Positions 1-32,000 of a stretch of DNA of 32,000 bases are shown in pieces. The stretch's first letter is position 1, and each line of letters opens with the position of its first letter. This DNA is from Candidatus Omnitrophota bacterium (lineage in GTDB: Bacteria > Omnitrophota > Gorgyraeia > Zapsychrales > JANLHA01): positions 720,001 to 752,000 of the forward strand of contig OY759724.1 in NCBI GenBank assembly GCA_963662715.1, in the 5' to 3' direction. The translations under genes were made by a program, and so were the position numbers. The notes beneath the pieces were generated by a model. The model worked only from the letters and a program-made list of their open reading frames with translations, was not told the origin of the DNA and made no database searches.

Positions 1-3000
1 CTTCTGGTCTTCGACACATTCCTTCTTCGGATCTTCGACACATACCGCGCATTCCTCCTGTGACAGCAGACCTAAATCTTCGCATTCTTCCGGCTTGTCC
101 ACACAACCGTAACATTGTTTCCCTTCCCTGGTCTTTTGATCCTCGACACATTCCTTCTTCGGGTCTTCGGCACATACCGCGCATTCCTCCTGTGACAGCA
201 GACCTAAGTCTTCGCATTCTTCCGGCTTGTCCATACAGCTGTAGCATTGCCGGCCTTCTTTAGTCTTCTGGTCTTCGACACATTCCTTCTTCGGATCTTC
301 GACACATACCGCGCATTCCTCCTGTGACAGCAGACCTAAATCGACGCATTCTTCCGGCTTGTCCACACAACCGTAACATTGTTTCCCTTCCCTGGTCTTT
401 TGATCCTCGACACATTCCTTCTTCGGGTCTTTGGTGCAAATCGCGCACTCTTCTTCAGCCAGCAATCCAAGGTCGACGCATTCTTCCGGCTTGTCCATAC
501 AGCTGTAGCATTGCCGGCCTTCTTTAGTCCTCTGGTCTTCGACACATTCCTTCTTCGGATCTTCGACACATACCGCGCATTCCTCCTGTGACAGCAGGCC
601 TAAATCTTCGCATTCTTCCGGCTTGTCCACACAACCGTAACATTGTTTCCCTTCCCTGGTCTTTTGATCCTCGACACATTCCTTCTTCGGGTCTTCGGCA
701 CATACCGCGCATTCCTCCTGCGACAGCAGGCCTAAATCTTCGCACTCTTCCGGCTTATCCATACAGCTGTAGCATTGCCGGCCTTCTTTAGTCTTCTGGT
801 CTTCGACACATTCCTTCTTCGGATCTTCGACACATACCGCGCATTCCTCCTGTGACAGCAGACCTAAATCTTCGCATTCTTCCGGCTTGTCCACACAACC
901 GTAACATTGTTTCCCTTCCCTGGTCTTTTGATCCTCGACACATTCCTTCTTCGGGTCTTCGGCACATACCGCGCATTCCTCCTGTGACAGCAGACCTAAA
1001 TCTTCGCATTCTTCCGGCTTGTCCATACAGCTGTAGCATTGCCGGCCTTCTTTAGTCCTCTGGTCTTCGACACATTCCTTCTTCGGATCTTCGACACATA
1101 CCGCGCATTCCTCCTGTGACAGCAGACCTAAATCGACGCATTCTTCCGGCTTGTCCACACAACCGTAACATTGTTTCCCTTCCCTGGTCTTTTGATCCTC
1201 GACACATTCCTTCTTCGGGTCTTTGGTGCAAATCGCGCACTCTTCTTCAGCCAGCAATCCAAGGTCGACGCATTCTTCCGGTTTGTCCATACAGCTGTAG
1301 CATTGCCGGCCTTCTTTAGTCCTCTGGTCTTCGACACATTCCTTCTTCGGGTCTTTGGTGCAAATCGCGCACTCTTCTTCAGCCAGCAATCCAAGGTCGA
1401 CGCATTCTTCCGGTTTGTCCATACAGCTGTAGCATTGCCGGCCTTCTTTAGTCCTCTGGTCTTCGACACATTCCTTCTTCGGATCTTCGACACATACCGC
1501 GCATTCCTCCTGTGACAGCAGACCTAAATCTTCGCATTCTTCCGGCTTGTCCACACAACCGTAACATTGTTTCCCTTCCCTGGTCTTTTGATCCTCGACA
1601 CATTCCTTCTTCGGGTCTTCGGCACATACCGCGCATTCCTCCTGCGACAGCAGGCCTAAATCTTCGCACTCTTCCGGCTTATCCATACAGCTGTAGCATT
1701 GCCGGCCTTCTTTAGTTTTCTGATCCTCGACACATTCCTTCTTCGGATCTTCGACACATACCGCGCATTCCTCCTGCGACAGCAGACCTAAATCTTCGCA
1801 TTCTTCCGGTTTATCCATACAGCTGTAGCATTGCCGGCCTTCCCTGGTCTTCTGATCTTCGACACATTCCTTCCTCGGGTCTTCGACACATACCGCGCAT
1901 TCCTCCTGTGACAGCAGACCTAAGTCTTCGCATGCTTCCGGCTTGTCCATACAGCTGTAGCATTGCCGGCCTTCTTTGGTCTTCTGATCTTCGACACATT
2001 CTTTCTTCGGGTCTTCGACACATACCGCGCATTCCTCCTGTGACAGCAGACCTAAATCTTCGCATGCTTCCGGCTTATCCACACAGCTGTAGCATTGCCG
2101 GCCTTCTTTGGTCTTCTGATCTTCGACACATTCTTTCTTCGGGTCTTCGACACAAATCGCGCACTCTTCTTCAGCCAGCAATCCAAGGTCGACGCATGCT
2201 TCCGGTTTATCCACACAGCTGTAGCATTGCCGGCCTTCTTTAGTCTTCTGATCTTCGATACATTCCTTCTTCGGGTCTTCGACACATACCGCGCATTCCT
2301 CCTGTGACAGCAGACCTAAATCTTCGCATGCTTCCGGCTTATCCACACAGCTGTAGCATTGCCGGCCTTCTTTGGTCTTCTGATCTTCGACACATTCTTT
2401 CTTCGGGTCTTCGACACATACCGCGCATTCCTCCTGTGACAGCAGACCTAAATCTTCGCATGCTTCCGGTTTATCCACACAGCTGTAGCATTGCCGGCCT
2501 TCTTTAGTCTTCTGATCTTCGATACATTCCTTCTTCGGGTCTTCGACACATACCGCGCATTCCTCCTGCGACAGCAGGCCTAAATCAATACATTCTTCCG
2601 ATTTATCCATACAGTTGTAGCATTGCCGGCCTTCCTTGGTCTTCTGATCCTCGACACATTCCTTCTTCGGGTCTTTGACACATACCGCGCATTCCTCCTG
2701 TGACAGCAGACCTAAATCGACGCATTCTTCCGGTTTATCCATACAGCTGTAGCATTGCCGGCCTTCTTTAGTTTTCTGATCCTCGACACATTCTTTCTTC
2801 GGGTCTTCAGCACATACCGCGCATTCCTCCTGTGACAGCAGGCCTAAATCTTCGCATGCTTCCGGTTTGTCCATACAGCTGTAGCATTGCCGGCCTTCTT
2901 TGGTCTTCTGATCTTCGACACATTCTTTCTTCGGGTCTTCAGCACATACCGCGCATTCCTCCTGTGACAGCAGGCCTAAATCTTCGCATGCTTCCGGCTT

Positions 3001-4260
3001 GTCCATACAGCTGTAGCATTGCTGACCTTCTCTGGTCTTTTGATCTTCGACACATTCCTTCTTCGGGTCTTCGACACATACCGCGCATTCCTCCTGCGAC
3101 AGCAGGCCTAAATCAATACATTCTTCCGGCTTGTCCACACAGCCGTAGCATTGCCGGCCTTCTTTGGTCTTCTGATCCTCGACACATTCTTTCTTCGGGT
3201 CTTTGGTGCAAATCGCGCACTCTTCTTCAGCCAGCAATCCAAGGTCATCGCATTCTTCCGGTTTGTCCATACAGCTGTAGCATTGCCGGCCTTCTTTAGT
3301 CTTCTGATCTTCGATACATTCCTTCTTCGGGTCTTCGACACATACCGCGCATTCCTCCTGCGACAGCAGGCCTAAATCAATACATTCTTCCGGTTTGTCC
3401 ATACAGCTGTAGCATTGCCGGCCTTCCTTGGTCTTTTGATCTTCGACACATTCTTTCTTCGGGTCTTCGACACATACCGCGCATTCCTCCTGTGACAGCA
3501 GGCCTAAATCGTCGCACTCTTCCGGCTTATCCATACAGCTGTAGCATTGCCGGCCTTCTTTAGTCTTCTGATCCTCGACACATTCTTTCTTCGGGTCTTC
3601 GACACATACCACGCATTCCTCCTGCGACAGCAGGCCTAAATCAATACATTCTTCCGATTTATCCATACAGCTGTAGCATTGCTGTCCTTCTTTAGTCTTC
3701 TGATCCTCGACACATTTCTTCCTCGGATCTTCAGTGCAAATCGCGCACTCTTCTTCAGCCAATAATCCAAGGTCGACGCATTCTTCCGGTTTATCCACAC
3801 AGCTGTAGCATTGCTGTCCTTCTCTGGTCTTCTGATCCTCGACACATTTCTTCCTCGGATCTTCAGTGCAAATCGCGCACTCTTCTTCAGCCAATAATCC
3901 AAGGTCGACGCATTCTTCCGGTTTATCCATACAGTTGTAGCATTGCTGTCCTTCTCTGGTCTTCTGATCCTCGACACATTTCTTCCTCGGATCTTCAGTG
4001 CAAATCGCGCACTCTTCTTCAGCCAATAATCCAAGGTCGACGCATTCTTCCGGTTTATCCATACAGCTGTAGCATTGCTGTCCTTCTCTGGTCTTCTGAT
4101 CCTCGACACATTTCTTCCTCGGATCTTCAGTGCAAATCGCGCACTCTTCTTCAGCCAATAATCCAAGGTCGACGCATTCTTCCGGTTTATCCATACAGCT
4201 GTAGCATTGCTGTCCTTCCTTGGTCTTCTGATCCTCGACACATTTCTTCCTGCGATCTTT
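1..4260. repeat. Tandem array of about 32 near-identical 132-bp units, coding and in frame, with higher-order periodicity. Six more diverged units continue to about 4975.
   Basis: The anchor string cataccgcgc (A-type unit) or gcaaatcgcgc (B-type unit) recurs at exactly 132-bp steps: 41, 173, 305, 437(B), 569, 701, 833, 965, 1097, 1229(B), 1361(B), 1493 ... 3737(B), 3869(B), 4001(B), 4133(B). Block 1..528 recurs almost identically at 793..1320, a 792-bp (6-unit) higher-order repeat. Off-frame track ORFs 60..263 and 852..1055 differ by one residue. Units with anchors at 4265 to 4925 keep the protein motif but are diverged at the DNA level. Confidence 0.95.
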
Positions 4261-5208
4261 CTCGCATCTTCTGCATTCTGACTCAGATATTAAACCCAAA
4301 TCCGTGCACTCTTTAGGCTTATCCACACAGCTGAAGCATTGCTTGCCTTCTTTGGTCTGCTGAGCTTCAACACATTCCTTCTTCGGATCCCTGCCACACT
4401 TTTTGCATTCTGCTTTTGACATCAATCCCAAATCTGCACATTCTTCCGGTTTATCAATGCAAAGATAACATTGAGTACCCTCTTTCGTTTTTTTGCTAAG
4501 AACACATTCCTTTTTCGGGTTAGTTTCACAAAGATCACATTCCTGCACATCCAGCAATCCCAAATCCGGACATTTTTCTATCCGATTGACGCATTCAAAA
4601 CAAGATAATCCCACTCCAATATCTTTAGAAAATTTACACTCTTTACCGGGGTTAATCTCGCAACCTTCCTGACACTCGCCCCAAGCTAAAAGGTCAAAAT
4701 CCGAGCATTTTTCATGACTCTCTTTACACTCAAAGCATTGCCGGCCCTGCTTAGTTCTCTTTGAACGCACGCATTCCGCCCCCGGGATCTCTGCGCAAAG
4801 CTGACACTCTTCTCTATTAAGCAATCCGATATCGTTACATTGCTGAAGTTTCTCCGTACACTCATAACACTGCAGGCCTTCATTAGTACGGCGGGAGCGC
4901 CGGCATTCCGCATTAGGAATTTCATCGCACAGGGAACACTCCTCCTCGGTAATGAGGCCTATCTCACTGCACAACTGCGGCAATAATTCTGTAGTGATCG
5001 GGATGTCCTTATCTGGGGTATGGAAGGTTGCTCCTTTCTTAGGATTCGGAAAGGGCAGAGTTTGACGCTTCTTTTTTATCTCCTCCCAAAATTTCTTTAG
5101 ATCAAAAGCCTCTGCCGGACGGACTAAGGGAGAAGCAAAAAATGAACCGCAGATTATTCCAAGAACACATAGTACAATCCGTAAATCATTTTTACGTCTA
5201 ATTGTCAT
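1..5208 (-). CDS. Giant secreted, acidic, cysteine-rich tandem-repeat protein (N-terminal 1736 codons; the frame is open to the left window edge, so the 3' end is outside the window)
   Basis: Absent from the supplied ORF track because there is no stop codon inside the window. Hand translation of the minus strand from ATG 5208..5206 gives MTIRRKNDLRIVLCVLGIICGSFFASPLVRPAEA/FDLKKFWEEIKKKRQ..., a Sec-type signal peptide with an AxA site. About 38 in-frame 44-aa units follow, with consensus T-[KR]-E-G-x-Q-C-Y-x-C-x-D-K-P-E-E-C-x-D-L-G-L-L-x-x-E-E-C-A-x-C-x-E-D-P-K-K-E-C-V-E-D-Q-K. I translated 5208..4261 and 264..1 codon by codon and found no stop. Every minus-strand ORF the track lists inside 1..5208 starts at a coordinate with mod 3 = 1 or 2. 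The frame with mod 3 = 0 never produces a start-to-stop ORF, as expected if it is continuously open. The 132-bp period equals 44 codons, so every repeat copy preserves the frame. Confidence 0.85.
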   Translation of the reverse strand, partial: MTIRRKNDLRIVLCVLGIICGSFFASPLVRPAEAFDLKKFWEEIKKKRQTLPFPNPKKGATFHTPDKDIPITTELLPQLCSEIGLITEEECSLCDEIPNAECRRSRRTNEGLQCYECTEKLQQCNDIGLLNREECQLCAEIPGAECVRSKRTKQGRQCFECKESHEKCSDFDLLAWGECQEGCEINPGKECKFSKDIGVGLSCFECVNRIEKCPDLGLLDVQECDLCETNPKKECVLSKKTKEGTQCYLCIDKPEECADLGLMSKAECKKCGRDPKKECVEAQQTKEGKQCFSCVDKPKECTDLGLISESECRRCEKDRRKKCVEDQKTKEGQQCYSCMDKPEECVDLGLLAEEECAICTEDPRKKCVEDQKTREGQQCYSCMDKPEECVDLGLLAEEECAICTEDPRKKCVEDQKTREGQQCYNCMDKPEECVDLGLLAEEECAICTEDPRKKCVEDQKTREGQQCYSCVDKPEECVDLGLLAEEECAICTEDPRKKCVEDQKTKEGQQCYSCMDKSEECIDLGLLSQEECVVCVEDPKKECVEDQKTKEGRQCYSCMDKPEECDDLGLLSQEECAVCVEDPKKECVEDQKTKEGRQCYSCMDKPEECIDLGLLSQEECAVCVEDPKKECIEDQKTKEGRQCYSCMDKPEECDDLGLLAEEECAICTKDPKKECVEDQKTKEGRQCYGCVDKPEECIDLGLLSQEECAVCVEDPKKECVEDQKTREGQQCYSCMDKPEACEDLGLLSQEECAVCAEDPKKECVEDQKTKEGRQCYSCMDKPEACEDLGLLSQEECAVCAEDPKKECVEDQKTKEGRQCYSCMDKPEECVDLGLLSQEECAVCVKDPKKECVEDQKTKEGRQCYNCMDKSEECIDLGLLSQEECAVCVEDPKKECIEDQKTKEGRQCYSCVDKPEACEDLGLLSQEECAVCVEDPKKECVEDQKTKEGRQCYSCVDKPEACEDLGLLSQEECAVCVEDPKKECIEDQKTKEGRQCYSCVDKPEACVDLGLLAEEECAICVEDPKKECVEDQKTKEGRQCYSCVDKPEACEDLGLLSQEECAVCVEDPKKECVEDQKTKEGRQCYSCMDKPEACEDLGLLSQEECAVCVEDPRKECVEDQKTREGRQCYSCMDKPEECEDLGLLSQEECAVCVEDPKKECVEDQKTKEGRQCYSCMDKPEECEDLGLLSQEECAVCAEDPKKECVEDQKTREGKQCYGCVDKPEECEDLGLLSQEECAVCVEDPKKECVEDQRTKEGRQCYSCMDKPEECVDLGLLAEEECAICTKDPKKECVEDQRTKEGRQCYSCMDKPEECVDLGLLAEEECAICTKDPKKECVEDQKTREGKQCYGCVDKPEECVDLGLLSQEECAVCVEDPKKECVEDQRTKEGRQCYSCMDKPEECEDLGLLSQEECAVCAEDPKKECVEDQKTREGKQCYGCVDKPEECEDLGLLSQEECAVCVEDPKKECVEDQKTKEGRQCYSCMDKPEECEDLGLLSQEECAVCAEDPKKECVEDQKTREGKQCYGCVDKPEECEDLGLLSQEECAVCVEDPKKECVEDQRTKEGRQCYSCMDKPEECVDLGLLAEEECAICTKDPKKECVEDQKTREGKQCYGCVDKPEECVDLGLLSQEECAVCVEDPKKECVEDQKTKEGRQCYSCMDKPEECEDLGLLSQEECAVCAEDPKKECVEDQKTREGKQCYGCVDKPEECEDLGLLSQEECAVCVEDPKKECVEDQK

Positions 5209-7325
5209 TTCTTATCCGAAATATCCACCCCTTCCGGAACAACCTTTTGGGGAATGCTCATGGTTATCTGGACTTGACCGTTATCTAAAAATTGCTCTGC
5301 TTCAACAATCAACAGTTCTTCGATTTCAGTTTCATCTATATGGCAAATATCCGCTAATTCTTTCTTCGTCTGTTCAATTGTCAATTTTTTAGCCATCTCT
5401 TTTTGAATTTCCTCACTAGCATTCTGCATTTTTAATGGTTTGGAAATCCGGGTAAAGTAAATTCTTTCCTCCTGCTGAAGCGCCCCGGGATCAAAAGTAA
5501 AGACTTTGACTTCATCTACGTTATAATCAGAAACATATATTTTCCCTTCTGACCAAGACACAGAAGAAAGAGAAGGGAAATAACTACGCCCTCTGCCAAT
5601 ACTGCCGAACTGCATAATAAGCTGATTCTTGGGGGTAAATATCTTTATAGCGTGATCGCCTCGATCGGCCACATACAAGTTATCATTATCATCCAAAGCA
5701 ATATCAATGGGATCTTTAAACTTGATCATATCTTTCCTGCCGCCGACCTCTCTTAAAAACAGGCCCTCATGGTCGAAGACCTGAATACGGTTATTCTTAT
5801 AATCCAGCACATATAATTCGCCTTTGGAATTAAACGCCAAATCTTTCGGTTCAGAAAAAGTGCCCGGCTTGGGGCCGTGGACATACACCTCTTCACTCTC
5901 TTTCCCGAACGTTTTCAGATAAATTCCGTCGCTGTTGAACACCTGGATCCGGTTATTTTTTGAATCAGAGATATAAATATACCCCTCATCATCAAGGGTT
6001 ACCCCGCCTAAAGCAAGAAATTCGCTCCGGTCTTTTCCTTTCTTGCCAAATTGATAATCAAAGGAACCATCCGCCTTCAAGAATTGCACGCGGTGATTAC
6101 CCGTATCCGTGATAAGAATACGCCCGTCTTCAGCGACAAATAAGGCTTGCGGGTTTCTAAGTTTGCGGTTTTCATCTTCTGTTTTCCCGAATACGAGTTT
6201 CGTGTCGCCAATAAAGGTGATTTGAGCATAATAATCTGACAGGGCATACAATCCCCGGCCCGGGACAGCCTTCAGATCCGCGATCATTTTCCCTGTATAA
6301 ATTGAGGAATCATAATCAAGCATGGGAGGGACAAAAGGAACCGTCTTTAAAGCAGTTTTGCTGCTCCCGGTAATGTTGAAAAACTGGATCCTCCCATTCA
6401 TAGTATCTGCAATATACACCTTACCATCAAGATCACAGGAAATACTTGCCGGCCAATTAAACTGCCCCTTGCCAACCCCCTGAGACCCGAACGAAAACAG
6501 AATCTGTTCTGTCTGGTCCATCTTGACAATGCTGTTGTTCTTCCATTCAATGAGATAAATATCACCCCGGTAATCGACCGCGATACCGGCTGTTTCTGTT
6601 AAGTAGTTCGTTTCCGCATTCTTTAACGACAACTCCTCTGGATTTCCCTGATTGGGAGGATATTTCACAATCTTTCCTTCTTCCTGCGCCAAAACATAAA
6701 GATTCCGCTGTTTATCAAAAGCTAAATCATAAGGACTGAAGTTCACCCCCATGGTTTCCAAAAACACTCCTTTGGGGGTATACTTGGTAATTGCATTATT
6801 TTTTATATCTGCCACGTATATGTACCCGAGAGGATCCACGGCAACCGAACTGATTCTGCGATATTCACCCGGCTCTTTGCCTCCGTTGCCCATTTCATAC
6901 AGGAACTCACCGCTTGCTTTAAAGACCTGTAAACGGTTGTTTCCGGTGTCCGCCACAATAACATCCCCTGAAGAAGTCAAAGCAATGGATTCCGGGACAT
7001 GGAACTGTTTTAACTGGGTGCCCTGTTCTCCGAAACTCAATTTTATTTTTCCTTCGGGACCAAAAATAAAAACTTTAGCCAATTTTCTGTCCAGGACATA
7101 GATGTCACCGGTGGCCGATATGACAGTATCCACGGGTTCCGCCAGTTCGGCCACGATTTCTCCAAGGAACTCAACTTCTTCAACCGCCGACACTCGCCCT
7201 GCGGGAACGAAAATCAAAGACAACACCATAACGATCGGGAAAAACCTCCATCGACTTATTTTCTTCTGAATTTTTGTTTTCATTTGATGTATCCTTTCTT
7301 GCAATTTTTCATTTTTTCTTTTCAT
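5205..7325 (-). CDS. Secreted NHL-repeat protein: about 12 NHL blades (two six-bladed beta-propellers) plus an acidic C-terminal tail
   Basis: Track ORF 5205..7331. About 12 recurrences of the NHL signature P-x-x-[IL]-A-[LV]-D-x-x-G-x-[IL]-Y-[VI]-[AS]-D-x-x-N-x-R-[IV]-Q-[VF]-F-x-x-x-G-x-[FL], for example GDVIVADTGNNRLQVF, GYIYISDSKNNRIQVF, GELYVLDYKNNRIQVF, GRILITDTGNHRVQFL and GKVYIADTMNGRIQFF. The N-terminal hydrophobic segment FFPIVMVLSLIFVPAGRVSA/VEE looks like a signal peptide. I prefer ATG 7325..7323 as the start. AGGAGG at 7337..7332 abuts the TTG at 7331 with no spacer but lies 6 nt from that ATG. The TGA stop at 5207..5205 overlaps the ATG of the downstream giant ORF. Confidence 0.9.
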   Translation of the reverse strand: MKRKNEKLQERIHQMKTKIQKKISRWRFFPIVMVLSLIFVPAGRVSAVEEVEFLGEIVAELAEPVDTVISATGDIYVLDRKLAKVFIFGPEGKIKLSFGEQGTQLKQFHVPESIALTSSGDVIVADTGNNRLQVFKASGEFLYEMGNGGKEPGEYRRISSVAVDPLGYIYVADIKNNAITKYTPKGVFLETMGVNFSPYDLAFDKQRNLYVLAQEEGKIVKYPPNQGNPEELSLKNAETNYLTETAGIAVDYRGDIYLIEWKNNSIVKMDQTEQILFSFGSQGVGKGQFNWPASISCDLDGKVYIADTMNGRIQFFNITGSSKTALKTVPFVPPMLDYDSSIYTGKMIADLKAVPGRGLYALSDYYAQITFIGDTKLVFGKTEDENRKLRNPQALFVAEDGRILITDTGNHRVQFLKADGSFDYQFGKKGKDRSEFLALGGVTLDDEGYIYISDSKNNRIQVFNSDGIYLKTFGKESEEVYVHGPKPGTFSEPKDLAFNSKGELYVLDYKNNRIQVFDHEGLFLREVGGRKDMIKFKDPIDIALDDNDNLYVADRGDHAIKIFTPKNQLIMQFGSIGRGRSYFPSLSSVSWSEGKIYVSDYNVDEVKVFTFDPGALQQEERIYFTRISKPLKMQNASEEIQKEMAKKLTIEQTKKELADICHIDETEIEELLIVEAEQFLDNGQVQITMSIPQKVVPEGVDISDKK

Positions 7326-7340
7326 TTTCAACCTCCTAAA

Positions 7341-7375
7341 ATAAAAAATGCCTATCCCGGATAAGGTATAGGCAT
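7341..7375 (-). terminator. Hairpin plus U-tract immediately upstream of the NHL gene RBS; proposed expression platform of the proximal riboswitch
   Basis: The minus-strand RNA reads AUGCCUAU-ACCUUAUCCGGG-AUAGGCAU followed by UUUUUAUUUU, then AGGAGG. The stem is 8 bp and can be extended by CC/GG pairs inside the loop. Only a few nucleotides separate the U-tract from the Shine-Dalgarno sequence. That placement is typical of an attenuator rather than an end-of-operon terminator. Confidence 0.6.
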
Positions 7376-7385
7376 ATATTATAAT

Positions 7386-7470
7386 ATTTCGGTAACCAGG
7401 CTGTCCTTATCCCAGGACCCTATAGCTTTGCGTCCCCACCTTGCGATGGGTTTGCCCTTTTCGTCTATGT
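7386..7470 (-). promoter_or_regulatory. c-di-GMP-I (GEMM-I) riboswitch aptamer, proximal copy
   Basis: Minus-strand RNA: GACGAAAAGGGCAAACCCAUCGCAAGGUGGGGACGCAAAGCUAUAGGGUCCUGGGAUAAGGACAGCCUGGUUACCGAAAU. It aligns by eye to the Vibrio cholerae Vc2 aptamer (ACAGGGCAAACCAUUCGAAAGAGUGGGACGCAAAGCCUCCGG...GGGGUUACCGAUGG). GGGCAAACC is identical, then comes a hairpin closed by a GNRA tetraloop (CCCAUC-GCAA-GGUGGG), then GGGACGCAAAGC is identical. A second bulged hairpin follows (GGGUCC...GGAC-AG-CC), then GGUUACCGA. Confidence 0.8.
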
Positions 7471-7471
7471 C

Positions 7472-7509
7472 AAAACAACAAAACCTATCCTTTAGACAAG
7501 AATAGGCCT
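7472..7509 (-). terminator. Hairpin plus U-tract between the two aptamers; proposed expression platform of the distal riboswitch
   Basis: Minus-strand RNA: AGGCCUAUUC-UUGUCUAAA-GGAUAGGUUUUGUUGUUUU. The core stem CCUAUUC/GGAUAGG is 7 bp including one G-U pair and can be extended by wobble pairs. A U-rich tract follows. Confidence 0.5.
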
Positions 7510-7527
7510 GATCACGATCCAAAACGG

Positions 7528-7615
7528 CGTTGATTCGGGAACTGGCTATCCTTGATAAAGGACCCTGTAGCTTTGCGTCCCCACCTTGCGATGGGTTTGC
7601 CTTTTTCGTCAATCT
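7528..7615 (-). promoter_or_regulatory. c-di-GMP-I (GEMM-I) riboswitch aptamer, distal copy
   Basis: Minus-strand RNA: GAUUGACGAAAAAGGCAAACCCAUCGCAAGGUGGGGACGCAAAGCUACAGGGUCCUUUAUCAAGGAUAGCCAGUUCCCGAAUCAACG. It has the same conserved core as the proximal copy. The two copies share a 51-nt near-identical stretch, plus strand 7415..7465 versus 7560..7610, with 2 mismatches. The second hairpin shows a compatible change relative to the proximal copy: GGAU-AG-CC versus GGAC-AG-CC, a G-U pair versus a G-C pair. Confidence 0.75.
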
Positions 7616-7629
7616 ATTTTTCCAGTCCA

Positions 7630-7658
7630 AGTATATAATATTCATATTCAAAAAGCAA
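7630..7658 (-). promoter_or_regulatory. Candidate sigma70-like promoter for the riboswitch leader
   Basis: The minus strand reads TTGCTT (7658..7653), then 17 nt, then TATACT (7635..7630), about 15 nt upstream of the distal aptamer. The -35 is a weak match in an AT-rich context, so this could be chance. Confidence 0.3.
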
Positions 7659-13008: not shown

Positions 13009-14802
13009 TCAATCGTCAATGTTTGCTTCCGGGACATCCCTGCCGGACGACAGCATCAGTCGTTGCAGCTTCTGCAGATCTTCTTGAGCTTTAAGAATCT
13101 TTTCGGCCTGCTGATAAACCCTTTGGGCTTCTTGATCCTGACGAAGGATTTTATGAACAAAAATCAAATAACCGAAATCGGAAACTCGCGGAGACTGGAT
13201 CAAGTCTAAATTCTTTTGGAAATATATCAACGCCTGCCGAAACGCTCCCTTCCGGATCATGACTTCCCCTAATCCTTTATACGGCAGATGAAAATACGGG
13301 TACCGCCGGACAGCTCTTCTAAAATAATATTCCGCAACTTGCGGCTCATCCAGCCGGCAATATCCGAGGAAACAAAAAACTCTCGGATCATCCGCGCCCA
13401 AGGCAAGGCTTTTTTCTAACGCCCACCGGGATAACTGACAATTTCCCCGTTTAAACGCCAATATCCCCATTGTCTGGTAACCCGACTTGTCTTCCGGATA
13501 GGCCTTAACCAAGGCCCGTGCCAATACGTCATCGTTTTTCCAGACCGTATTTAAATAATTCAGTTTTAATAAACAGACCGCCACCATTCCTGCTTTCAAA
13601 ATCAACCCCAGCCGCGGGTGACCGGAGGAAAAAGGACTCCTCTTTATCCCGCGGTCTATCAGCAGGCCCAAAGCGGCAAAAAAACCTATCGACGGGACAT
13701 AGAGATATCGGTGAGCCACCGGGTTCACAAGAGGAATACTGTGAGAAACAGGGAAAAAAGCGGCCAGGAACCAAAACAAGAAAAAAGGCAAAGGGCCTTT
13801 TGTCTTTCTCATCTTGATGAGCATCGCCATGATAAGCATATAAAAAGCGCCACCCAGAATCACGCTGACAAACGACAGGGAACTTAAAGGAAGTTTATAA
13901 TCGCCGGGGACCACTTTAACTTTCCAGGGGAAAAGCATCTCCGTGCATTGGAAATAAAAAATCTGTAAAACCTCCTGCAGGTGGATCAGGGGCCGGGCAT
14001 GTATTTTCATCTGACTCAAAGTTGTGTTCGGGAAAACACAAAGATAAACATACAAGTAAAAACAGGAAATGAGGCCGATTCCCATCAGAAAGGGCCGGGA
14101 CCTTCGCAATCTATCCGCCGTCGTCCGCATATAATAAAGATATCCTCCGACAAGCAGCGGGAAGACGAGCGCGGATTCTTTTGTAAATAACGCCAAGAAG
14201 TACATCGCTAAAGAAACACACAAGAGAGGGACGCTCTGCCGGGGCAGATCCCCTCGCCCCCCACAATTACGGCTGGAAAGAACCGCCATTGCCCGTTCAG
14301 CCCGGATAAAACAGAGGAAAGCGGCAAGCAAAAAAAAGCAGGACAGGCTGTCGGCACGATACCCGACCGTGGAAACAACCTCTGCTTTTGTCGGATGAAC
14401 GGCAAACAAGCTGGTCCCGAACAAGGCCGCACTTTGGCTGTGCGACAGAAGCATAATGACAAAATAAACTGAAATGACATTCAGAATATGCAGAAACAGA
14501 TTATGGGCGTGATATCCGAAAGGCGCCAGCGAACACAGCCAGCGCTCAAAAAAAAAGGTCAGGGACAGCACCGGGCGATAAGCGACCGAACCGGAACTAA
14601 AAATAATGGTATTCCCGAACAGAACGTCTTCCCCGCGGGTTAAATACTTGTCGTCGAATAAATGGCGCAGGTGGCCCGGCTGGGCGTAAAAACGGTTATG
14701 AACGATAAAAGAGACTTCGTCACCGACAAATCCGTTAGAGAGGCTATTATGAAAGGCAAGAAATGTTAAAAGAATAAGGAATAAAATTGCTTTTGGCGCC
14801 AT
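13009..14802 (-). CDS. Polytopic membrane protein with C-terminal TPR repeats (TMTC/PMT-like, GT-C-type putative glycosyltransferase)
   Basis: 597-aa ORF. The N-terminal segment NGFVGDEVSFIVHN resembles the F-x-x-DD-x-x-I-x-x-N motif of TMTC/DUF1736-type proteins. About 10 hydrophobic helices follow. The C-terminal 170 aa or so carry TPR-like repeats (AYPEDKSGYQTMGILAFKRGNCQLSRWALEKSLAL..., YFRRAVRRYPYFHLPYKGLGEVMIRKGAFRQALIYFQKNLDL). Confidence 0.55.
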   Translation of the reverse strand: MAPKAILFLILLTFLAFHNSLSNGFVGDEVSFIVHNRFYAQPGHLRHLFDDKYLTRGEDVLFGNTIIFSSGSVAYRPVLSLTFFFERWLCSLAPFGYHAHNLFLHILNVISVYFVIMLLSHSQSAALFGTSLFAVHPTKAEVVSTVGYRADSLSCFFLLAAFLCFIRAERAMAVLSSRNCGGRGDLPRQSVPLLCVSLAMYFLALFTKESALVFPLLVGGYLYYMRTTADRLRRSRPFLMGIGLISCFYLYVYLCVFPNTTLSQMKIHARPLIHLQEVLQIFYFQCTEMLFPWKVKVVPGDYKLPLSSLSFVSVILGGAFYMLIMAMLIKMRKTKGPLPFFLFWFLAAFFPVSHSIPLVNPVAHRYLYVPSIGFFAALGLLIDRGIKRSPFSSGHPRLGLILKAGMVAVCLLKLNYLNTVWKNDDVLARALVKAYPEDKSGYQTMGILAFKRGNCQLSRWALEKSLALGADDPRVFCFLGYCRLDEPQVAEYYFRRAVRRYPYFHLPYKGLGEVMIRKGAFRQALIYFQKNLDLIQSPRVSDFGYLIFVHKILRQDQEAQRVYQQAEKILKAQEDLQKLQRLMLSSGRDVPEANIDD

Positions 14803-14874: not shown

Positions 14875-15264
14875 TTACGCAGGAGAGGCCGCGGGAGCAT
14901 ATTTTCCTTTGCCAAAAAATTCCACTAATTTTTCAGCGTAAAATTTGACAAATTTCCGCTCATCAAATTTTATCGGATCAACAATCTTAACACCTACCCG
15001 GTAAAGCAACGGATAATCCGTCGGCCGGCCTTTTTCCTGTTCAACCCGTACGATTTTCGCATGAAGTTCAATTTTCATATTAATCGGCAGTAAAAGAAAC
15101 ATCAGGAGTTCCTGCCGGATCTGCAGTTCTTCCGTTGTTATAAAAGCCACTCCCGTTCCGCTGATATCCAGCGTTGCCGTGTCGATGAGTTTTTTTCGGG
15201 GGGGAACCCTGAAGCTCATCGGAATTTCAAGTTTCATCCGGTGATATCGTCTTTTATCTGACAT
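14875..15264 (-). CDS. Single-domain PilZ protein (predicted c-di-GMP receptor)
   Basis: 129-aa ORF. It has the N-terminal RRYHR (RxxxR) motif and D-I-S-G-T-G (DxSxxG) about 30 residues later, the two signature c-di-GMP-binding motifs of PilZ domains. Confidence 0.8.
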   Translation of the reverse strand: MSDKRRYHRMKLEIPMSFRVPPRKKLIDTATLDISGTGVAFITTEELQIRQELLMFLLLPINMKIELHAKIVRVEQEKGRPTDYPLLYRVGVKIVDPIKFDERKFVKFYAEKLVEFFGKGKYAPAASPA

Positions 15265-16558: not shown

Positions 16559-16683
16559 GAGTAAGATTCTTTTCTGCCCTCTTAATAGTGTGCAATTTTT
16601 TCAGGCATGAAAAATTGGATTATCCGATCCAACTATGCTATTTTATTAAGGAATTATTATCTTCATTTATTATATTTCTTATT

Positions 16684-18438
16684 ATGAAAAAATCGATCAT
16701 TTTATTATTCATCTTCCTGAGCCAGTATGCTTTTGCTTACGCAGACGATATTCAGCTGGAAACCGGAGAGTCCCTTTCCTGCCTTTTCCTGGATAGGACC
16801 GGTTCGGAAATCTTTCTGGATTGTCAAAATGACGGGTTACAATCATACGCCATTACGAAAGTCCGGAGTGTTAACGGAGAGAAGGTCCTCCCCGTTGATG
16901 ACAAACTCTTGTCCTGGATAAAATCTCAGCAAAGCTCCTTCACTCAGATGCCTCTGAGTTTTGACATCCTTGATCAGGAAAGAATGGATTCGTATAAACG
17001 CATGGGAGAGCCTGACTCTATCACAGGGATCATTGAACGCCTCATTGTGGAAGAAGGAATGTCCGTGTATGATACGGCCGTCCGGCAGATTGCCTTGACG
17101 ATGATCGGCGGTCTTCAGAACCTGAAGTCCGCCTACCTTCCCATTCAGACATATTGGGACGGACACCTAAGACAACTGATCAACATCCGGGCCGGTTACC
17201 CCTCGCAGCCGTTTATTTATGATCCTTTTCAACCGGAAAGAGTCAGTTCTGATTTGTCCGAGAAAGGCAAACGGGGGTTTCTCTTCCGCATCATTAACGC
17301 CCACGGCCTTTATGACTCCCAAGATCCTCTGGATGGCAAAGAACGGTTCGTCGGGTTTCCTAACTGGCCAACGATCCATTGGGAAGACTGGAAACCTATT
17401 GCCGGAGAAAACGCCTGGGTTGTCATTGCCGCAATGCATCTGCACAAAAAAAGATATCTGAAAAAACCGGATCATAACCCGGACCGCTCTCTGGATACGG
17501 TTGAAATGCGGTTGGCAAAGGAAATCGCCAGGGCAGCCCAACTGCTACAAGCTCCTAACGGAGGAATCCGCATGGCGCCTATCGGCACGTACACGCCTAT
17601 TGTCACGATTGATAAAAATTCCAGCCTTGAAGAAATTTCCCAAACGCTGGATGCTCTTGCACGCTACGAACCTTCCGTGAAAGAAAAAAATCCCGTCAAT
17701 CAACTCTTTGAGAACGGAATGGTTGTCAATGACCAATACATGCCGGAAGAGCTCACGTGGTATTACAATGAAATATCAACGGAAAATAATCTGTCCTGGT
17801 ACACGGCTTTCCGCATGTTGTACGAAGTCACCGGAGAGGAGCGGTATAAAAAATCCATGGAAGATATCGAAAAATACTTCCGGTCGGCCTGGAACGCCTC
17901 CGAATATTATTTCTATCAAGGGATGCATTTCCGTTTTGGGACATGGTTCCCCAACAATGAACACTTTGCCACTGATGTGCAGAACTGGGCGGTAGCAGCT
18001 CTGGGGCCCCAGAAAATCGACGCCTGGTTTGGGGAAGGAACGGCATTTAAAATATGGCAAAAGACGAAGAATATATCCGGGAACTTCAATCAGCAGCATA
18101 AAATCCGCGGGGTAGGCTTCACCACGGAGCATGACCGCATTTCCATTGAATGGACCGTAGGCGCAATATTTGCGACGAGGAGTTTAGCGGAATATTATAA
18201 AAAAAGTCACCCGGACTGGGCTGAGGAAGCCGCCCAAGACGCTCAAAACATGCGCAGCAGCATGGAATCCTTCCGCATTGAAATTTCTGATCAAGAAGCC
18301 GCTTACGCCTATTCTTCCAGGCGGGGGTGGATTCCCTTTGGCTGGTTTTCTCATGACCCCAACATCATCAGCTTAGTCTCGACGTGTTGGATCATACTCG
18401 CCGATGCGGACTACAATCCGTTCTTCCTGCCGGAATAA
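16684..18438 (+). CDS. Secreted protein of unknown function
   Basis: Track ORF 16588..18438. I prefer the internal ATG at 16684 because it yields a canonical signal peptide, MKKSIILLFIFLSQYAFA/YADD. No family motif was recognised. W/Y-rich segments (GENAWVVIAAMHL, NLSWYTAFRMLYEVTG) are vaguely reminiscent of alpha/alpha-toroid glycan-active enzymes, but I cannot support that call. This is the only plus-strand gene. Confidence 0.75.
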   Translation: MKKSIILLFIFLSQYAFAYADDIQLETGESLSCLFLDRTGSEIFLDCQNDGLQSYAITKVRSVNGEKVLPVDDKLLSWIKSQQSSFTQMPLSFDILDQERMDSYKRMGEPDSITGIIERLIVEEGMSVYDTAVRQIALTMIGGLQNLKSAYLPIQTYWDGHLRQLINIRAGYPSQPFIYDPFQPERVSSDLSEKGKRGFLFRIINAHGLYDSQDPLDGKERFVGFPNWPTIHWEDWKPIAGENAWVVIAAMHLHKKRYLKKPDHNPDRSLDTVEMRLAKEIARAAQLLQAPNGGIRMAPIGTYTPIVTIDKNSSLEEISQTLDALARYEPSVKEKNPVNQLFENGMVVNDQYMPEELTWYYNEISTENNLSWYTAFRMLYEVTGEERYKKSMEDIEKYFRSAWNASEYYFYQGMHFRFGTWFPNNEHFATDVQNWAVAALGPQKIDAWFGEGTAFKIWQKTKNISGNFNQQHKIRGVGFTTEHDRISIEWTVGAIFATRSLAEYYKKSHPDWAEEAAQDAQNMRSSMESFRIEISDQEAAYAYSSRRGWIPFGWFSHDPNIISLVSTCWIILADADYNPFFLPE

Positions 18439-18468: not shown

Positions 18469-21400
18469 TTAATCCTCTTTTTCATCCACCTTATCAATGA
18501 TACTTAACCGCGCTTCAGAGCTGTTCGCCCGGATCTCCGGCACATACATGGCATGGACCTGATTAGGCATCCCGTGAAAATCTCCCGGGATTTCGGCACG
18601 GAGCTCATAGGTGATCTTATGTTTTCCCTGCGGAAGTTCTGTAATAAAAAAGGCCGCTTTCTGGTCGCGGAATTCCTTATAAAGCCAGACCTGCCTGCCC
18701 TGGGCCTCCTCGTCTTCATCTAAAGTCACGGCATATCCGCTGCCGCTTTTTAACTCTGTCGCTTCAAAACCGGCGGGCTTGTAATCTTCCACAACCAGAT
18801 ATTCGTAATGATTTTTGGCTTCCAATTGGATCTCAACCCGCACCCGGTCCCCGCTCATTAACCGGTCACCTATCTCCAGGGGCTGCCATTCGTCTTTATA
18901 CCCCTTCAGCAATGTCTCTTTTTGCGACTGCCGGGAATACGTGCGTTTCACAAAGACCTCGTTTCCGGCAGGGGAAATATTTTCTTCCAGAGTGAAATAT
19001 TTCAAATACCCGGACAGATATAAAGCCCCTTCCCCTTTCATGGCGACTGTCACCTGATTAGAACCGTTTTTCAGATACTCTTGCGGAACGGTAATGTTAC
19101 GGTTATAAGTAAACAGGTTCGCCCGGCTGACATGCCCTTTCGTTAAGGATTGACCGTTGACAAACACTTCATAATCAAAATCCGGCGTTAGCTCCAACGT
19201 CGTTTTTAAATAATCCGCCAAACCCAAAATAGCAACAGCCGTATCCCGGGTATTTTTCCACCTTGCTCCCCGCCGGTTTAAGGCGAGCCATTTGACGGCT
19301 GACTCCAAATGAGGACTTTGCGGGTCAATGTTCGCCAGCGCTTTAATGACAAAGGCCGTCGCTTCAACCCCGCCTTCACTCCAGCGGTAATTTACGCCGG
19401 ATTCTCCCCAATGAACCGTTCCGTTTTCCGGATCTTCCTGCATCCCGTTCACCAAATTCCGGGCCAAAACCCGGGCATTATCCAAACGGCCCCGCTGGAA
19501 CTCAGATAAAGCAAACAAGGCCCGTGTATAGGGGTTAAGCTGATCCCGCATATCCCAAAGACGCTGGCTTTGTTTTTCTTCATACCGGCTGTTGGACCTC
19601 GTCCCGGCCAAAGCATGCAGCATCCATGCCAGCATATCCGGATTATCCTCTTCCTCAACGAGTTCTTTCTGCAGGAAATTCACGGCCCGGGCAATCACTC
19701 CGCCTTCAATTTTTATTCCGGCCTGCTGGGCCAACGACAGCCCCCAGGTCACATAAGCCGTCATAAAACGGTTGCTGTCATCTTCTTTCCACCAACCCCA
19801 GCCGCCGTCCTCATGTTGAAACTCATATAATCTTTTAACGGCTTTCTCGGTAACGGCATTGAGCTGCTGCAGAGAGGCGTGCTGGGACATATGAGGATAA
19901 GCCGGGTCTCCCCGCGGCTCCATGACATCGCTGATATAGGCCGAAACTTCATCCCGGGAAAAGCCTAGTTGATGTAAAGTTTTGGCGACGATAACCGAGG
20001 GCAGGAAACGGCTCATGGTCTGCTCCACGCAGCCGTAAGGATAATTCGCAAGATACGGCAAAGCATCCAGCATGGCCGCGGCCATAGACGGCGACATCAC
20101 GAGCTCTAAAGAGGTCGACTCTTTCATGCGCTCCGCAGGGACGTGCAGAACAAACTCGGCACGATCTTCTTTATCCCCGGCGGATTTCAGGCTCAAGCTC
20201 TTGGCAATAAACTTCTCGATCCCGTGAGGAATGACCGGATAGACTTTTTTCATGGCGTCAGCCTCATCAGCGGCCTGGGCCATGACGGTTATATCGGCCT
20301 GGCCGGCCAAAGGCGCCGCACAAATCCAGTCTACCCGCTGCTCTCCTTGGGACGGGACTGTCACCCAGGCCTCAGGAGCGTCCATCACCTGCAAACCCTT
20401 GGCATCAAGACTCACTTTGATCTTCTGTTCCTGATCAGTATAATTATGAACATTGGCTGAAATGGTGACTTTGTCCCGTTCGGTAAAAAAACGCGGAGCC
20501 TGCAAGCGGACAATCACGTCTTTGTTTGTCCTTACCTCATGAGTGATATTCCCTATTTTCGTTCCCCGTGTCATGGCACGCGCTGTCGTCTGCCAGGTCG
20601 TCAGCGAATCAGGAAAACGGGCTTTTATCTCCGCCCGGCCGTCTTCATTCGTCATCAACACCGGCTGCCAAAATACCGTTGAACGGAAATCAGCCCTCAC
20701 TTCAGGAGTCGCAAGACCGGCATCATCGCCCAGAACCGCCCCTATTTCGTCCATCTCCATCAAGGCTTCTTCCCTGGGGGCCGAAAGAGCCGGGCTGGCC
20801 AGACCTTTCATTTTGCCGACCACCGCTCTGCTGGATTTAACCTCCATGTCCGACATTTCTTTGCTGAGCTCACCGGCGACTCCTTCCCCGAACACCATCC
20901 CCCCGCTCGCGGCATCAAGCGTTTGAACCTGGACGCTGTAATCTAAACGGTGTTCGTTTTTCTTGTCCGCATCTTTTATCAAGCTCCTCCGGAAACGTTC
21001 ATCTTCCGTGATAATCTGTCCGTTCTCATCCCGGACGAGCAGCTGGTAACGTTTTTGGTTAAAACTCGTCTGGGTCTGCACGGACAGCTGTCTTTTTTCC
21101 CCGAAGAAAAATTCCCGGATATCCTTGGCATATTCACTCTGGATATAAAAAACGCTCTTGTCCACCATGCCTAAAGCCACTTCAGCCACAACAGGCTGCC
21201 CTTTATGATCCGTCACTTCTACTTCAAAGGCCCCTTCTTCGCGAGGGCCATAGGATTCCTTATCTGCTATAATCTTAACATTAAGGAATTTCTCCTCCGG
21301 AGGAACGACAATCGGCAGAGAATACATCTTTAACTGATAATGGTCCGCAGAAACAGCATTAAAAAACATATTGGGGATAAAATAATCCTGAACGGGGACC

Positions 21401-24589: not shown

Positions 24590-25333
24590 TTAATCTTGGA
24601 CGCTGGTTCGATGATAAGTATCCATTGTCATGAAAAGCTGCCCAGCCTCTCCTTCTTCACGCACCAATCGATATGTTCCCGACACTTTTCCCGCTGTCGG
24701 GCAACAGTTGGCGTCTTCTTCGTTCCAAACAAAAAATTCAAAAAACAAGCCGTCTGCAAGGAACCAGGTCTTCGTCCCCTGCCGGATCTCTTCTCCGGGT
24801 TTTAAATAAGGGACGTAGGCTTTGGCCGCGGGGACAAAATGAACAGGTCTTAATTTCAAGTTATCGTGCCAAAAGACTTCGTACACATGCTCTGTTGTCA
24901 GGGCGGCTGTTCCTTGCGCCGTTTCGGTTATATGAATGATCTGAACGGGCGATTTTTCCCCTTTGATTGAGAAAAAAGAAATCTCTGCTTTAAGATCAGT
25001 AAAAGGCGTGGTTTTGAACTCATTAAGAAGGGATATTTGACCGTTTTGAAGAGAAAGAATTTTAACAATTTTATCAGAAGCGGTATGTTCAACCAAAACA
25101 GTCACTTTGTGATTCTGTAAACTTTCAGCTGTGCATAAGTGTTCGATTTCCGATTCCCGGAGGACGTGCTCCGCTGTTTCATAGATAACAAATGACTTGT
25201 CAGCATATTCATGACTCGGTTCTTGATCGGCAAAGCCATGACAACAGAAAAAAAACGGTCCCATGATTAGAATAAAAAGAATTCCCGCCTGATAGCCGCG
25301 TTGATCATCTCTTAAATGAAAAATCTGTGACAT
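24590..25333 (-). CDS. Hypothetical membrane-anchored or secreted protein
   Basis: 247-aa ORF with an N-terminal hydrophobic segment (AGILFILIMGPFFFCCHGFA). No recognisable motif. Confidence 0.6.
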   Translation of the reverse strand: MSQIFHLRDDQRGYQAGILFILIMGPFFFCCHGFADQEPSHEYADKSFVIYETAEHVLRESEIEHLCTAESLQNHKVTVLVEHTASDKIVKILSLQNGQISLLNEFKTTPFTDLKAEISFFSIKGEKSPVQIIHITETAQGTAALTTEHVYEVFWHDNLKLRPVHFVPAAKAYVPYLKPGEEIRQGTKTWFLADGLFFEFFVWNEEDANCCPTAGKVSGTYRLVREEGEAGQLFMTMDTYHRTSVQD

Positions 25334-30439: not shown

Positions 30440-32000
30440 TTAATTCAGCCAGCTGATATCTTTTTCACGGCCGGCATAAAATTTTTCCCGGCTGTCAGAC
30501 GGTAAGGCTGACCGCCTTGTCGCCGAAGGAGGACTTTCTTCCGGCCCCTCCTCAGTTAAACCTAACAATAAAGGAATATTCACCGGCGCGATGTTAATGA
30601 TAACCGGCAAAAACCCGTCAATTCTCATATCACCCACCGGCTGCTGCGGCAAAGGCAGCGGCACGCCCTGGCCGTCCCGCTTGATCTGCAGATCAAGTGC
30701 GGCCGGGTTAAAGTCAATACCGCCTAACGGCGAAGAGGCCGGTTCAGGTTCTTTCCCCAGTTCATAGCGTTTAATCTCCTGCCGATAGTCCCTGGCCCTG
30801 TCCTGATAAAACCAGCGCTCGGACAAGACCACGGAATCCACGTCCACGTCTCCCCAATGTTCATAGCGAATATCTTCAATGGCTTTTAAAAGGATCTCCG
30901 GTTCATCTCCGGTTAAATCTTCAACAATCCAGCCAAAAGTCGCATGAGCGACAAACGGATCAAACTTTGGGCCCTTTTGCGTCATATCAAAAAATTGATC
31001 CTGCAGGCCCTTCACTTCATCCCGGGCATTGTCCGTCATTAACATCGGGATAAAAATGGCTTTGCCCTGAAACATGCCTATCCCCTGAGCCATGAATTTA
31101 AAGGCACCGACCCGCCCCGGGATAAGCTGATCAAGCACAGCCACGGTTTCCTCTGTCACTTGCTCTTTCTGCCGGGGATCAGTCGTAAAATATGTCACTG
31201 AAGCATACGGCAGCGAGGGCACATCCCAGGCGATCTTATCAATGATCGATTGGGGAAGACGCGCCTTAAGCGCTTCCTGCGCTTTGGCCATGATCGCCTC
31301 CGGCATATTAAAATGCAAGAGATGTTTTAATTCCTCCTCCATCATCCTTTGGTCTTTCTGCACGGGCGTTCGTAAGGCCTCCTGCCACTTCTGTTCAAAG
31401 ATATCCCAGCTGGCCTGATATTCCGGAAGGATGGCGACCGGAGAACTTGCAGTATCAAAACTGTCAGTAATATTAATGACCTCGGCCTTATCTTTTTGAT
31501 GTATTGCGCTTGATACATTTTCATTTAACCGTTTTGTCCATTCGGCATATTCTTCTTCATACCCTTGTCTTGTCGCATTAGGTATTCTGTGCTCACCTAT
31601 AACTTCAGTATCTCTTCCCCACGTTTGGTTTTCCGGGCCGGCACCTTCATTAGGATCCCATAAGATTGGGAATACAAGTTCTTCTGGCTCTCTGGCAATA
31701 CGATCCAGAAGGGCTTCCATGGCCCTTTTGTATAATTTTACTGCGGAAGCACCTCTATATCCCCGACCCCATAAAATATCAGAAATAATTTCGAGTCTCA
31801 TATCAGGATATCTCCGGTGATGGGTGTCGATAAACTCCACGATTTCATCTTCTGTGACACCCCCTGTTCTTAAAATTTCTTCAAGAGCGACAAAAGTTTC
31901 CTTGTTCCTCAGAAAATCTTTGATCTCAAATAGAGAACGAAGGGTTTCTCTGTCTTCAACCTTCCCCAATGCTTGCATAGTCCATATTCTCGAACTCAAT
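30440..32000 (-). CDS. Protein of unknown function with the shared C-terminal GGIDFNP module (5' end probably outside the window)
   Basis: The track ORF starts at TTG 31999, but the frame is open to the right window edge, so the true start is likely beyond 32000. The C-terminus reads GGIDFNPAALDLQIKRDGQGVPLPLPQQPVGDMRIDGFLPVIINIAPVNIPLLLGL plus a 38-aa tail ending in WLN. It lies 37 nt upstream of the 1553-aa gene on the same strand. Confidence 0.75.
   Translation of the reverse strand, partial: LSSRIWTMQALGKVEDRETLRSLFEIKDFLRNKETFVALEEILRTGGVTEDEIVEFIDTHHRRYPDMRLEIISDILWGRGYRGASAVKLYKRAMEALLDRIAREPEELVFPILWDPNEGAGPENQTWGRDTEVIGEHRIPNATRQGYEEEYAEWTKRLNENVSSAIHQKDKAEVINITDSFDTASSPVAILPEYQASWDIFEQKWQEALRTPVQKDQRMMEEELKHLLHFNMPEAIMAKAQEALKARLPQSIIDKIAWDVPSLPYASVTYFTTDPRQKEQVTEETVAVLDQLIPGRVGAFKFMAQGIGMFQGKAIFIPMLMTDNARDEVKGLQDQFFDMTQKGPKFDPFVAHATFGWIVEDLTGDEPEILLKAIEDIRYEHWGDVDVDSVVLSERWFYQDRARDYRQEIKRYELGKEPEPASSPLGGIDFNPAALDLQIKRDGQGVPLPLPQQPVGDMRIDGFLPVIINIAPVNIPLLLGLTEEGPEESPPSATRRSALPSDSREKFYAGREKDISWLN

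Follow-up and report, generated by a model that had tools for sequence, protein, structure and literature searches.

A tandem of c-di-GMP-I riboswitches, probably both OFF switches, in the leader of a two-gene operon from a genome labelled Candidatus Omnitrophota

The leader of a two-gene operon in a genome labelled Candidatus Omnitrophota contains two complete aptamers of the c-di-GMP-I class (named for cyclic di-GMP, c-di-GMP) in series, each followed by an intrinsic terminator of its own. It lies within a stretch of 32 kb, called the window throughout; all coordinates are window positions in plus-strand numbering, and both the leader and the genes that it would control are on the minus strand. 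We hold it to be very probable, from the sequence and its fit to known models, that the two elements are tandem c-di-GMP-I riboswitches with aptamers of the ordinary kind. The explanation that best accounts for all of the observations, and which we consider quite likely as a whole, is that the two riboswitches are both OFF switches and together control the two-gene operon; taken alone, the OFF direction, which comes from modelled folds, seems reasonably probable.

The duplication is visible at the level of the primary sequence. Plus-strand positions 7415..7465 and 7560..7610 form a direct repeat in which 49 of 51 positions are identical, exactly where an earlier note on this DNA had described a near-perfect repeat of 51 nucleotides (nt). 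One of the two differences is an A/G at the base equivalent to G19 of the Vc2 aptamer (A in the distal and G in the proximal copy, as the earlier note had it), and the other is a C/U within the 5' strand of helix P3. A core of 34 nt is shared exactly by both copies (there were 0 chance matches in 100 dinucleotide-preserving shuffles), and the similarity stretches to 70 nt at 87% identity, with a period of 145 nt. On the minus strand each copy runs from GGCAAACC into CCCAUC-GCAA-GGUGGG (a hairpin capped by a GNRA loop), continues with GGGACGCAAAGC and a bulged second hairpin, and ends in a 3' strand containing CCGAA, so the capped hairpin, the bulged hairpin and the CCGAA strand previously listed for each copy can all be read from the sequence. 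The span originally given to the element (7386..7615) stops short of the proximal terminator, which reaches 7338, and of the promoter, which reaches 7658.

A cmscan search of the window against Rfam 15, in a display that keeps only the best family of each clan, gave exactly two matches at gathering level, both to RF03167 and both covering model positions 1-80 of 80. No other Rfam family matched anywhere in the window at E<=0.1, and no tRNA was found there either. The published gathering scores of the related families are 35 bits for RF01051, 59 for RF03167 and 65.9 for RF03168 (PMC12452182 supplement). For each aptamer the search had suppressed two same-clan matches at E<=0.1, one of which passed its own gathering score. 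The clan of these aptamers is taken to hold only RF01051, RF03167 and RF03168. Given such a three-family clan, the suppressed match that passes must be RF01051, because a match scoring lower than those displayed cannot reach the 65.9 bits of RF03168; RF01051 would then score at least 35 bits at both aptamers, a value obtained indirectly from the thresholds and the clan membership. The covariance check that had been proposed against RF01051 did not refute the proposal, as each aptamer scores above the gathering threshold of an Rfam family (65.3 and 65.5 bits), with RF03167 and not RF01051 as the best family. Every helix of the three-helix junction has its place in the full-length alignment to the clan model, and centroid folds of both aptamers recover P2, the G-C junction pair and P3. 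The proposal of two complete c-di-GMP-I units in series is borne out by these full-length clan matches above the gathering score, together with a terminator for each unit (see below).

Relatives of the locus were sought by a scan of one genome per species, using the NHL-repeat protein encoded by the first controlled gene. Three orthologous loci (L001, L002 and L003) were found, with NHL-repeat proteins 70-72% identical to that of the window; two are from metagenome-assembled genomes (MAGs) labelled Candidatus Omnitrophota, from sludge digesters, and one is from a MAG labelled Planctomycetales. (The labels of these three loci, of which L001 is CAZAXH010000022.1, conflict; all are from sludge or digester-type samples.) In each of them a pair of aptamers 142 nt apart (145 nt in the window) lies directly upstream of the orthologous NHL gene, and the whole leader recurs, with promoter, both aptamers and both terminators. 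A scan of metagenomes added only two contigs (L004 and L005, one of them from activated sludge), with leaders identical to those of L002 and L003, and two further, distant NHL proteins without riboswitches. Between the window and the three genomes, identity is 95% for the distal aptamer, 87-91% for the proximal aptamer, 69-72% for the linker with the first terminator, 70% for the NHL coding DNA and 54-59% for the DNA upstream of the promoter. These figures point to selection on both aptamer copies, under a constraint stronger than that on the downstream gene. The two aptamers inside one genome are only 82-86% identical, as against 87-95% across orthologues, and therefore the duplication predates the split of the lineages.

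The bases expected to contact the ligand are of the canonical type. The equivalents of Vc2 G20, A47 and C92 are G 7601, A 7574 and C 7538 in the distal aptamer, and G 7456, A 7429 and C 7392 in the proximal one; the G at the G20 equivalent, which the earlier note had assigned by hand, is a G in both copies in the Rfam alignment as well. In both window copies and in all orthologous copies the triad occupies the same model positions (G at 10, A at 37 and C at 75), position 75 lying in the junction, ahead of the 3' strand of P1. Known c-di-GMP contacts are G20/A47/C92 in Vc2 and G12/A39/C104 in Vc1 (PMC4744006), and G11/A38/C81 in Bc1 (PMC11218506). The spacing of 27 nt from the G to the A here matches Vc2, Vc1 and Bc1 (PMC4744006, PMC11218506), and a C three bases before the A of the triad, together with the G in the AG bulge of P3, is where the conserved interhelical C-G pair is expected (PMC4744006). 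The loop of P2 is GCAA in the window and GUAA in three orthologous proximal copies, both of the GNRA type. Since the triad is G-A-C, we read both aptamers as canonical c-di-GMP-I.

The top Rfam family is that of the c-di-GMP-I-GGC variant class, and the aptamers might accordingly be thought to belong to that class and to sense a ligand other than c-di-GMP, which we regard as very unlikely. The variant model does give the best score for all aptamer copies examined (64.2-67.1 bits, always above its gathering score of 59), and its P2, P3 and junction sequences are very similar to those of both window copies. However, its consensus, GGGACGC-G-AAgC, carries an upper-case, conserved G at position 37, the equivalent of Vc2 A47 and hence one of the three ligand contacts, and all copies here read GGGACGC-A-AAGC (GACGCAAAGC); cmscan leaves the column of position 37 blank, as a mismatch, in the window aptamers and in the related loci. 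In line with the consensus, we take the 'GGC' of this variant (Weinberg et al. 2017) to stand for the three contact bases, of which the middle one would be G instead of A; on this reading, the base that would define the variant is absent from every copy. A narrow, information-rich variant model can outscore its broad parent on a canonical sequence, and the score alone is not decisive; on this meaning of GGC, we infer that the higher RF03167 score reflects a narrow model that resembles these sequences at other positions. Automatic labelling as the GGC variant would suggest an altered ligand without grounds. Conceivably, no canonical aptamers are more closely related to the GGC variant than those of this A47 type, which could then throw light on its origin. 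The alternative that the aptamers are of the GEMM-Ib type and sense 3'3'-cyclic GMP-AMP (3'3'-cGAMP) instead of c-di-GMP is extremely improbable: relatives that sense 3'3'-cGAMP have an identical fold and sequence models separate the two poorly, but selectivity for this ligand goes with an A at the G20 position (PMC9481103), where all copies here have G, and we rejected an assignment to the c-AMP-GMP riboswitches for this reason. As a side observation, clan competition labels the aptamers of L001-L005 as RF03167 too, despite the A at position 37.

The remaining parts of the leader are collected in Table 1, together with the two genes. A block with the appearance of a sigma-70 promoter (GTTGCTTTT...TATATTATACTTGGACTG) is conserved in four of four genomes, within upstream DNA of much lower identity (given above); it is likely to be the promoter, and the first transcribed base would then lie near 7623, which leaves about 13 nt ahead of the distal aptamer. 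Both aptamers are followed by a hairpin and a U-run, as had been claimed for each copy. The hairpin of the distal terminator has a folding energy of -13.1 kcal/mol (z -4.2) and is conserved in L001-L003; that of the proximal terminator, which was also found as inverted repeat I1, has -12.8 kcal/mol (z -3.2), and a terminator at this position is kept in the same three loci. The gap between aptamer and terminator is 23 nt in the distal unit and 11 nt in the proximal unit, with zero nucleotides in common. The pair has one conserved promoter upstream, there is no open reading frame (ORF) between the aptamer units, and the AGGAGG and AUG come only after the second of them. Two other readings of this region were rejected: the ORF at 7379..7651, a mechanical ORF that merely overlaps the aptamers, as protein-coding, and a single aptamer with a dual terminator.

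Table 1. Elements of the leader and the controlled genes, in the order of transcription (window positions, plus-strand numbering)
Feature	Position	Strand	Details
Putative sigma-70 promoter	7658..7630	-	-35 TTGCTT (7658..7653), 17-nt spacer, -10 TATACT (7635..7630); read from the sequence
Distal (5') c-di-GMP-I aptamer (very probable)	7610..7533	-	RF03167, 65.3 bits, E 1.8e-13; short P1, GCAA-capped P2, bulged P3
Distal antiterminator segment (predicted)	7554..7546	-	CAAGGAUAG (P3 loop and 3' strand); 9-bp helix with the terminator 5' arm CUAUUCUUG
Distal intrinsic terminator	7509..7471	-	Hairpin AGGCCUAUUCUU-GUCUA-AAGGAUAGGUUU (7509..7481), U-run UUUUGUUGUUUUG to 7471; from the terminator scan
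Proximal (3') c-di-GMP-I aptamer (very probable)	7465..7387	-	RF03167, 65.5 bits, E 1.5e-13; architecture as in the distal aptamer
Proximal antiterminator segment (predicted)	7412..7405	-	GGAUAAGG (P3 loop and start of the 3' strand); pairs with CCUUAUCC (7366..7359), the apical part of the proximal terminator
Proximal intrinsic terminator	7375..7338	-	Hairpin AUGCCUAUACC-UUAUCC-GGGAUAGGCAU (7375..7348), U-run UUUUUUAUUUU (7348..7338)
Ribosome-binding site and start codon	7337..7332 and 7325..7323	-	AGGAGG and AUG; read from the sequence
First controlled gene	7325..5205	-	706 aa; N-terminal hydrophobic segment, NHL-repeat beta-propeller domains; Pfam NHL PF01436, E 1.1e-57
Second controlled gene	5208..1	-	At least 1736 aa, runs off the window; signal-like N-terminus, then 44-aa Cys-rich repeats

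How the two units might switch was approached by folding them separately, as minimum-free-energy folds of the whole leader were uninformative. In all eight units (those of the window and of L001-L003) P3 and the terminator's 5' arm can pair over 7-9 bp to form an antiterminator. When the distal unit of the window is cut before the 3' arm of its terminator, the antiterminator is in the minimum-free-energy fold (-30.8, as against -30.0 with the aptamer enforced, a gap of less than 1 kcal/mol), and in the full distal unit it is again in the minimum-free-energy fold (-43.8 versus -38.6, i.e. favoured by about 5 kcal/mol); a difference of this size could well be reversed by tight binding of the ligand. 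The proximal antiterminator of the window is a duplex of 8 bp with -10.3 kcal/mol and has the lowest free energy when the transcript is 111 nt long; compared with the other seven units, it pairs in a shifted register, with the complementarity kept, and orthologous proximal units use the pairing AAGGAUAG:CUAUCCUU. Among the eight truncated transcripts the antiterminator is the minimum-free-energy fold in six (the four distal units, the proximal unit of L003, and the proximal unit of the window at 111 nt). On this model, transcription from the promoter at about 7658..7630 would pass through two complete c-di-GMP-I riboswitches that act independently. Without ligand, the P3 loop and 3' strand of each would form an antiterminator with the 5' arm of the terminator, so that RNA polymerase would read through; with c-di-GMP bound, P3 would be held in the aptamer, the terminator hairpin would form and transcription would stop. 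Both units would be OFF switches of the Cd1 type, and both terminators would have to be escaped for RNA polymerase to reach the two genes. Two such units in series would be expected to repress more tightly, and to respond more steeply as c-di-GMP rises, than a single unit.

The opposite logic, in which c-di-GMP prevents termination as in Bc3-5 of Bacillus thuringiensis and the operon is induced at high c-di-GMP, appears unlikely to us. It would suit the cargo, as the operon encodes secreted, repeat-rich proteins of a kind often induced by c-di-GMP and many c-di-GMP-I riboswitches before surface or adhesin-like genes are ON switches (PMC4759541), and folding predictions such as those above are thermodynamic only. 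The Bc3-5 terminator, however, is built from nucleotides of the binding site, P1 and P3, which makes aptamer and terminator mutually exclusive (PMC4759541), whereas the terminators here start 23 nt (distal) and 11 nt (proximal) past the aptamer. Since aptamer and terminator share no nucleotide, a ligand-bound aptamer cannot block the terminator; it leaves the terminator free, and the one conserved element that competes with the terminator is itself a strand of the aptamer. A different objection could be raised to the pair itself, namely that a single copy is functional and the other a decaying duplicate, the proximal copy being the less conserved of the two (87-91% against 95%). We think this highly improbable, as neither copy has lost its full-length match above the gathering score in any of four lineages, although their coding DNA is only 70% identical, and the contact triad, the GNRA loop, the terminator and the antiterminator pairing are kept in both.

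Several points nevertheless weigh against reading the locus as two OFF-type c-di-GMP-I riboswitches. The top Rfam family is the variant RF03167, and that RF01051 passes its own gathering score is derived from thresholds, its score being hidden by clan filtering. In a fold of seven aligned aptamer copies, compensatory base-pair changes were seen at zero of 16 pairs, the set being too similar for them (MAFFT, moreover, misplaces a 1-nt gap in the 3' strand of P3); support for the secondary structure therefore comes from how well the copies fit the Rfam model. The consensus scan flagged neither the proximal terminator nor the promoter. With regard to the direction of switching, OFF is a prediction from thermodynamic folding, and the truncated transcripts of three proximal units have a minimum-free-energy fold other than the antiterminator: those of L001 and L002, and that of the window at some lengths. 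The proximal antiterminator of the window, furthermore, targets the apical part of its terminator and may leave a lower stem of 8 bp unblocked. Finally, binding of c-di-GMP by the RNA is a prediction from sequence, and the organism is known only from metagenome assemblies.

Tandem arrangement of this class is already known, and the locus is an ordinary example of it. Sherlock et al. 2022 counted 347 doublets and 12 triplets of c-di-GMP-I riboswitches, the most of any riboswitch class (PMC9481103), and a later survey found c-di-GMP-I significantly enriched in tandem arrangements (PMC12452182); for this class, the earlier note was mistaken in calling tandem complete riboswitches uncommon. The pair described here resembles the catalogued doublets in having two units of the same class in one 5' untranslated region, each with an intrinsic terminator, and in the same ligand being expected for both units, with a steeper, more digital response as the expected outcome (PMC9481103); tandem riboswitches with multiple expression platforms have been described as 'pseudo-cooperative' (PMC9481103). 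It differs from them in its association with an NHL-repeat gene and an orphan Cys-rich repeat gene, which we did not find described. The triple tandem Bc3-5 of Bacillus thuringiensis (Zhou et al. 2016, PMC4759541) likewise consists of near-identical complete units in series with a terminator each, and in experiments it acted more stringently and more digitally than one unit does (PMC4759541). Bc3-5, however, has three units and is predicted to be ON, with a terminator that overlaps the aptamer, whereas the locus here has two units with separate terminators and is predicted to be OFF. In its predicted logic the locus is closest to Cd1 in the flgB leader of Clostridioides difficile (Sudarsan et al. 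2008; Landgraf et al. 2022, PMC9262584), a transcriptional OFF switch whose aptamer is compatible with its terminator, each of them competing with an antiterminator in which a strand of the aptamer pairs with the terminator's 5' arm (PMC9262584). Cd1 is a single unit, whereas here the design would occur twice in series, with the P3 loop and 3' strand as the competing strand predicted from sequence.

In our literature search we found no link between Omnitrophota and riboswitch regulation, and no riboswitches before NHL-repeat genes. What is mildly new at this locus is the host lineage, the gene association, the (likely) OFF/OFF logic and a GGC label that the defining base does not support. Conserved in four lineages and well supported, the locus is a further member of what is the largest group of tandem riboswitches so far known, and would extend that group to genomes labelled Candidatus Omnitrophota. 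Nothing in it alters the understanding of how such riboswitches work.

The first of the controlled genes encodes an NHL-repeat protein whose matches to the NHL families of NCBIfam (ScyF-like) are below the cut-offs, and an exact-sequence lookup of the protein found no record. The second encodes a giant protein with at least 33 near-identical copies of a 44-aa repeat (132 nt in the gene), each with six Cys and the consensus DLGLLSQEECAVCVEDPKKECVEDQKTKEGRQCYSCMDKPEEC; Tandem Repeats Finder reported a period of 132 nt, 33 copies and 87% matches. The giant protein has no match in Pfam or NCBIfam and only one homologue among 5.8 billion proteins; a weak PDB match to RING domains was treated as chance, reflecting the spacing of the cysteines. 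The stop codon of the NHL gene and the ATG of the giant gene (5208..5206) overlap as ATGA (5208..5205), which suggests translational coupling of the two genes, and the giant gene follows the NHL gene in L001 and L003 too, with the same junction (…DKK*/M…). The giant gene also accounts for a strong purine skew of the minus strand over positions 1..5000.

Placement behind the tandem would bring the NHL protein and the rare giant Cys-rich protein into a c-di-GMP regulon, and would be the first functional handle on both. A gene for a PilZ-domain protein (129 aa, 14875..15264 on the minus strand, Pfam E 4e-11), a type of c-di-GMP receptor, lies in the same window and is consistent with c-di-GMP signalling in the organism. 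A more far-reaching proposal, which we put forward as doubtful, is that the OFF/OFF pair is the main switch by which an uncultured, Omnitrophota-like bacterium of sludge digesters shuts off a lineage-specific surface or secreted apparatus at high c-di-GMP; this apparatus would consist of the NHL beta-propeller protein and the orphan giant protein with its at least 33 six-cysteine repeats. If true, c-di-GMP signalling through riboswitches would be connected with a cell-surface function, as yet unknown, in a candidate phylum for which our literature search found no account of riboswitch regulation.

Elsewhere in the window, four ORFs have no Pfam match at E<=0.001: 13009..14802 (minus strand, 597 aa), 16588..18438 (plus strand, 616 aa), 24590..25333 (minus strand, 247 aa) and 30440..31999 (minus strand, 519 aa). 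Two further genes on the minus strand encode large proteins: a bacterial alpha-2-macroglobulin of 1951 aa (18469..24324; MG2, A2M, TED and bMG10 domains) and a protein of 1553 aa (25741..30402) that matches HEAT repeats only.

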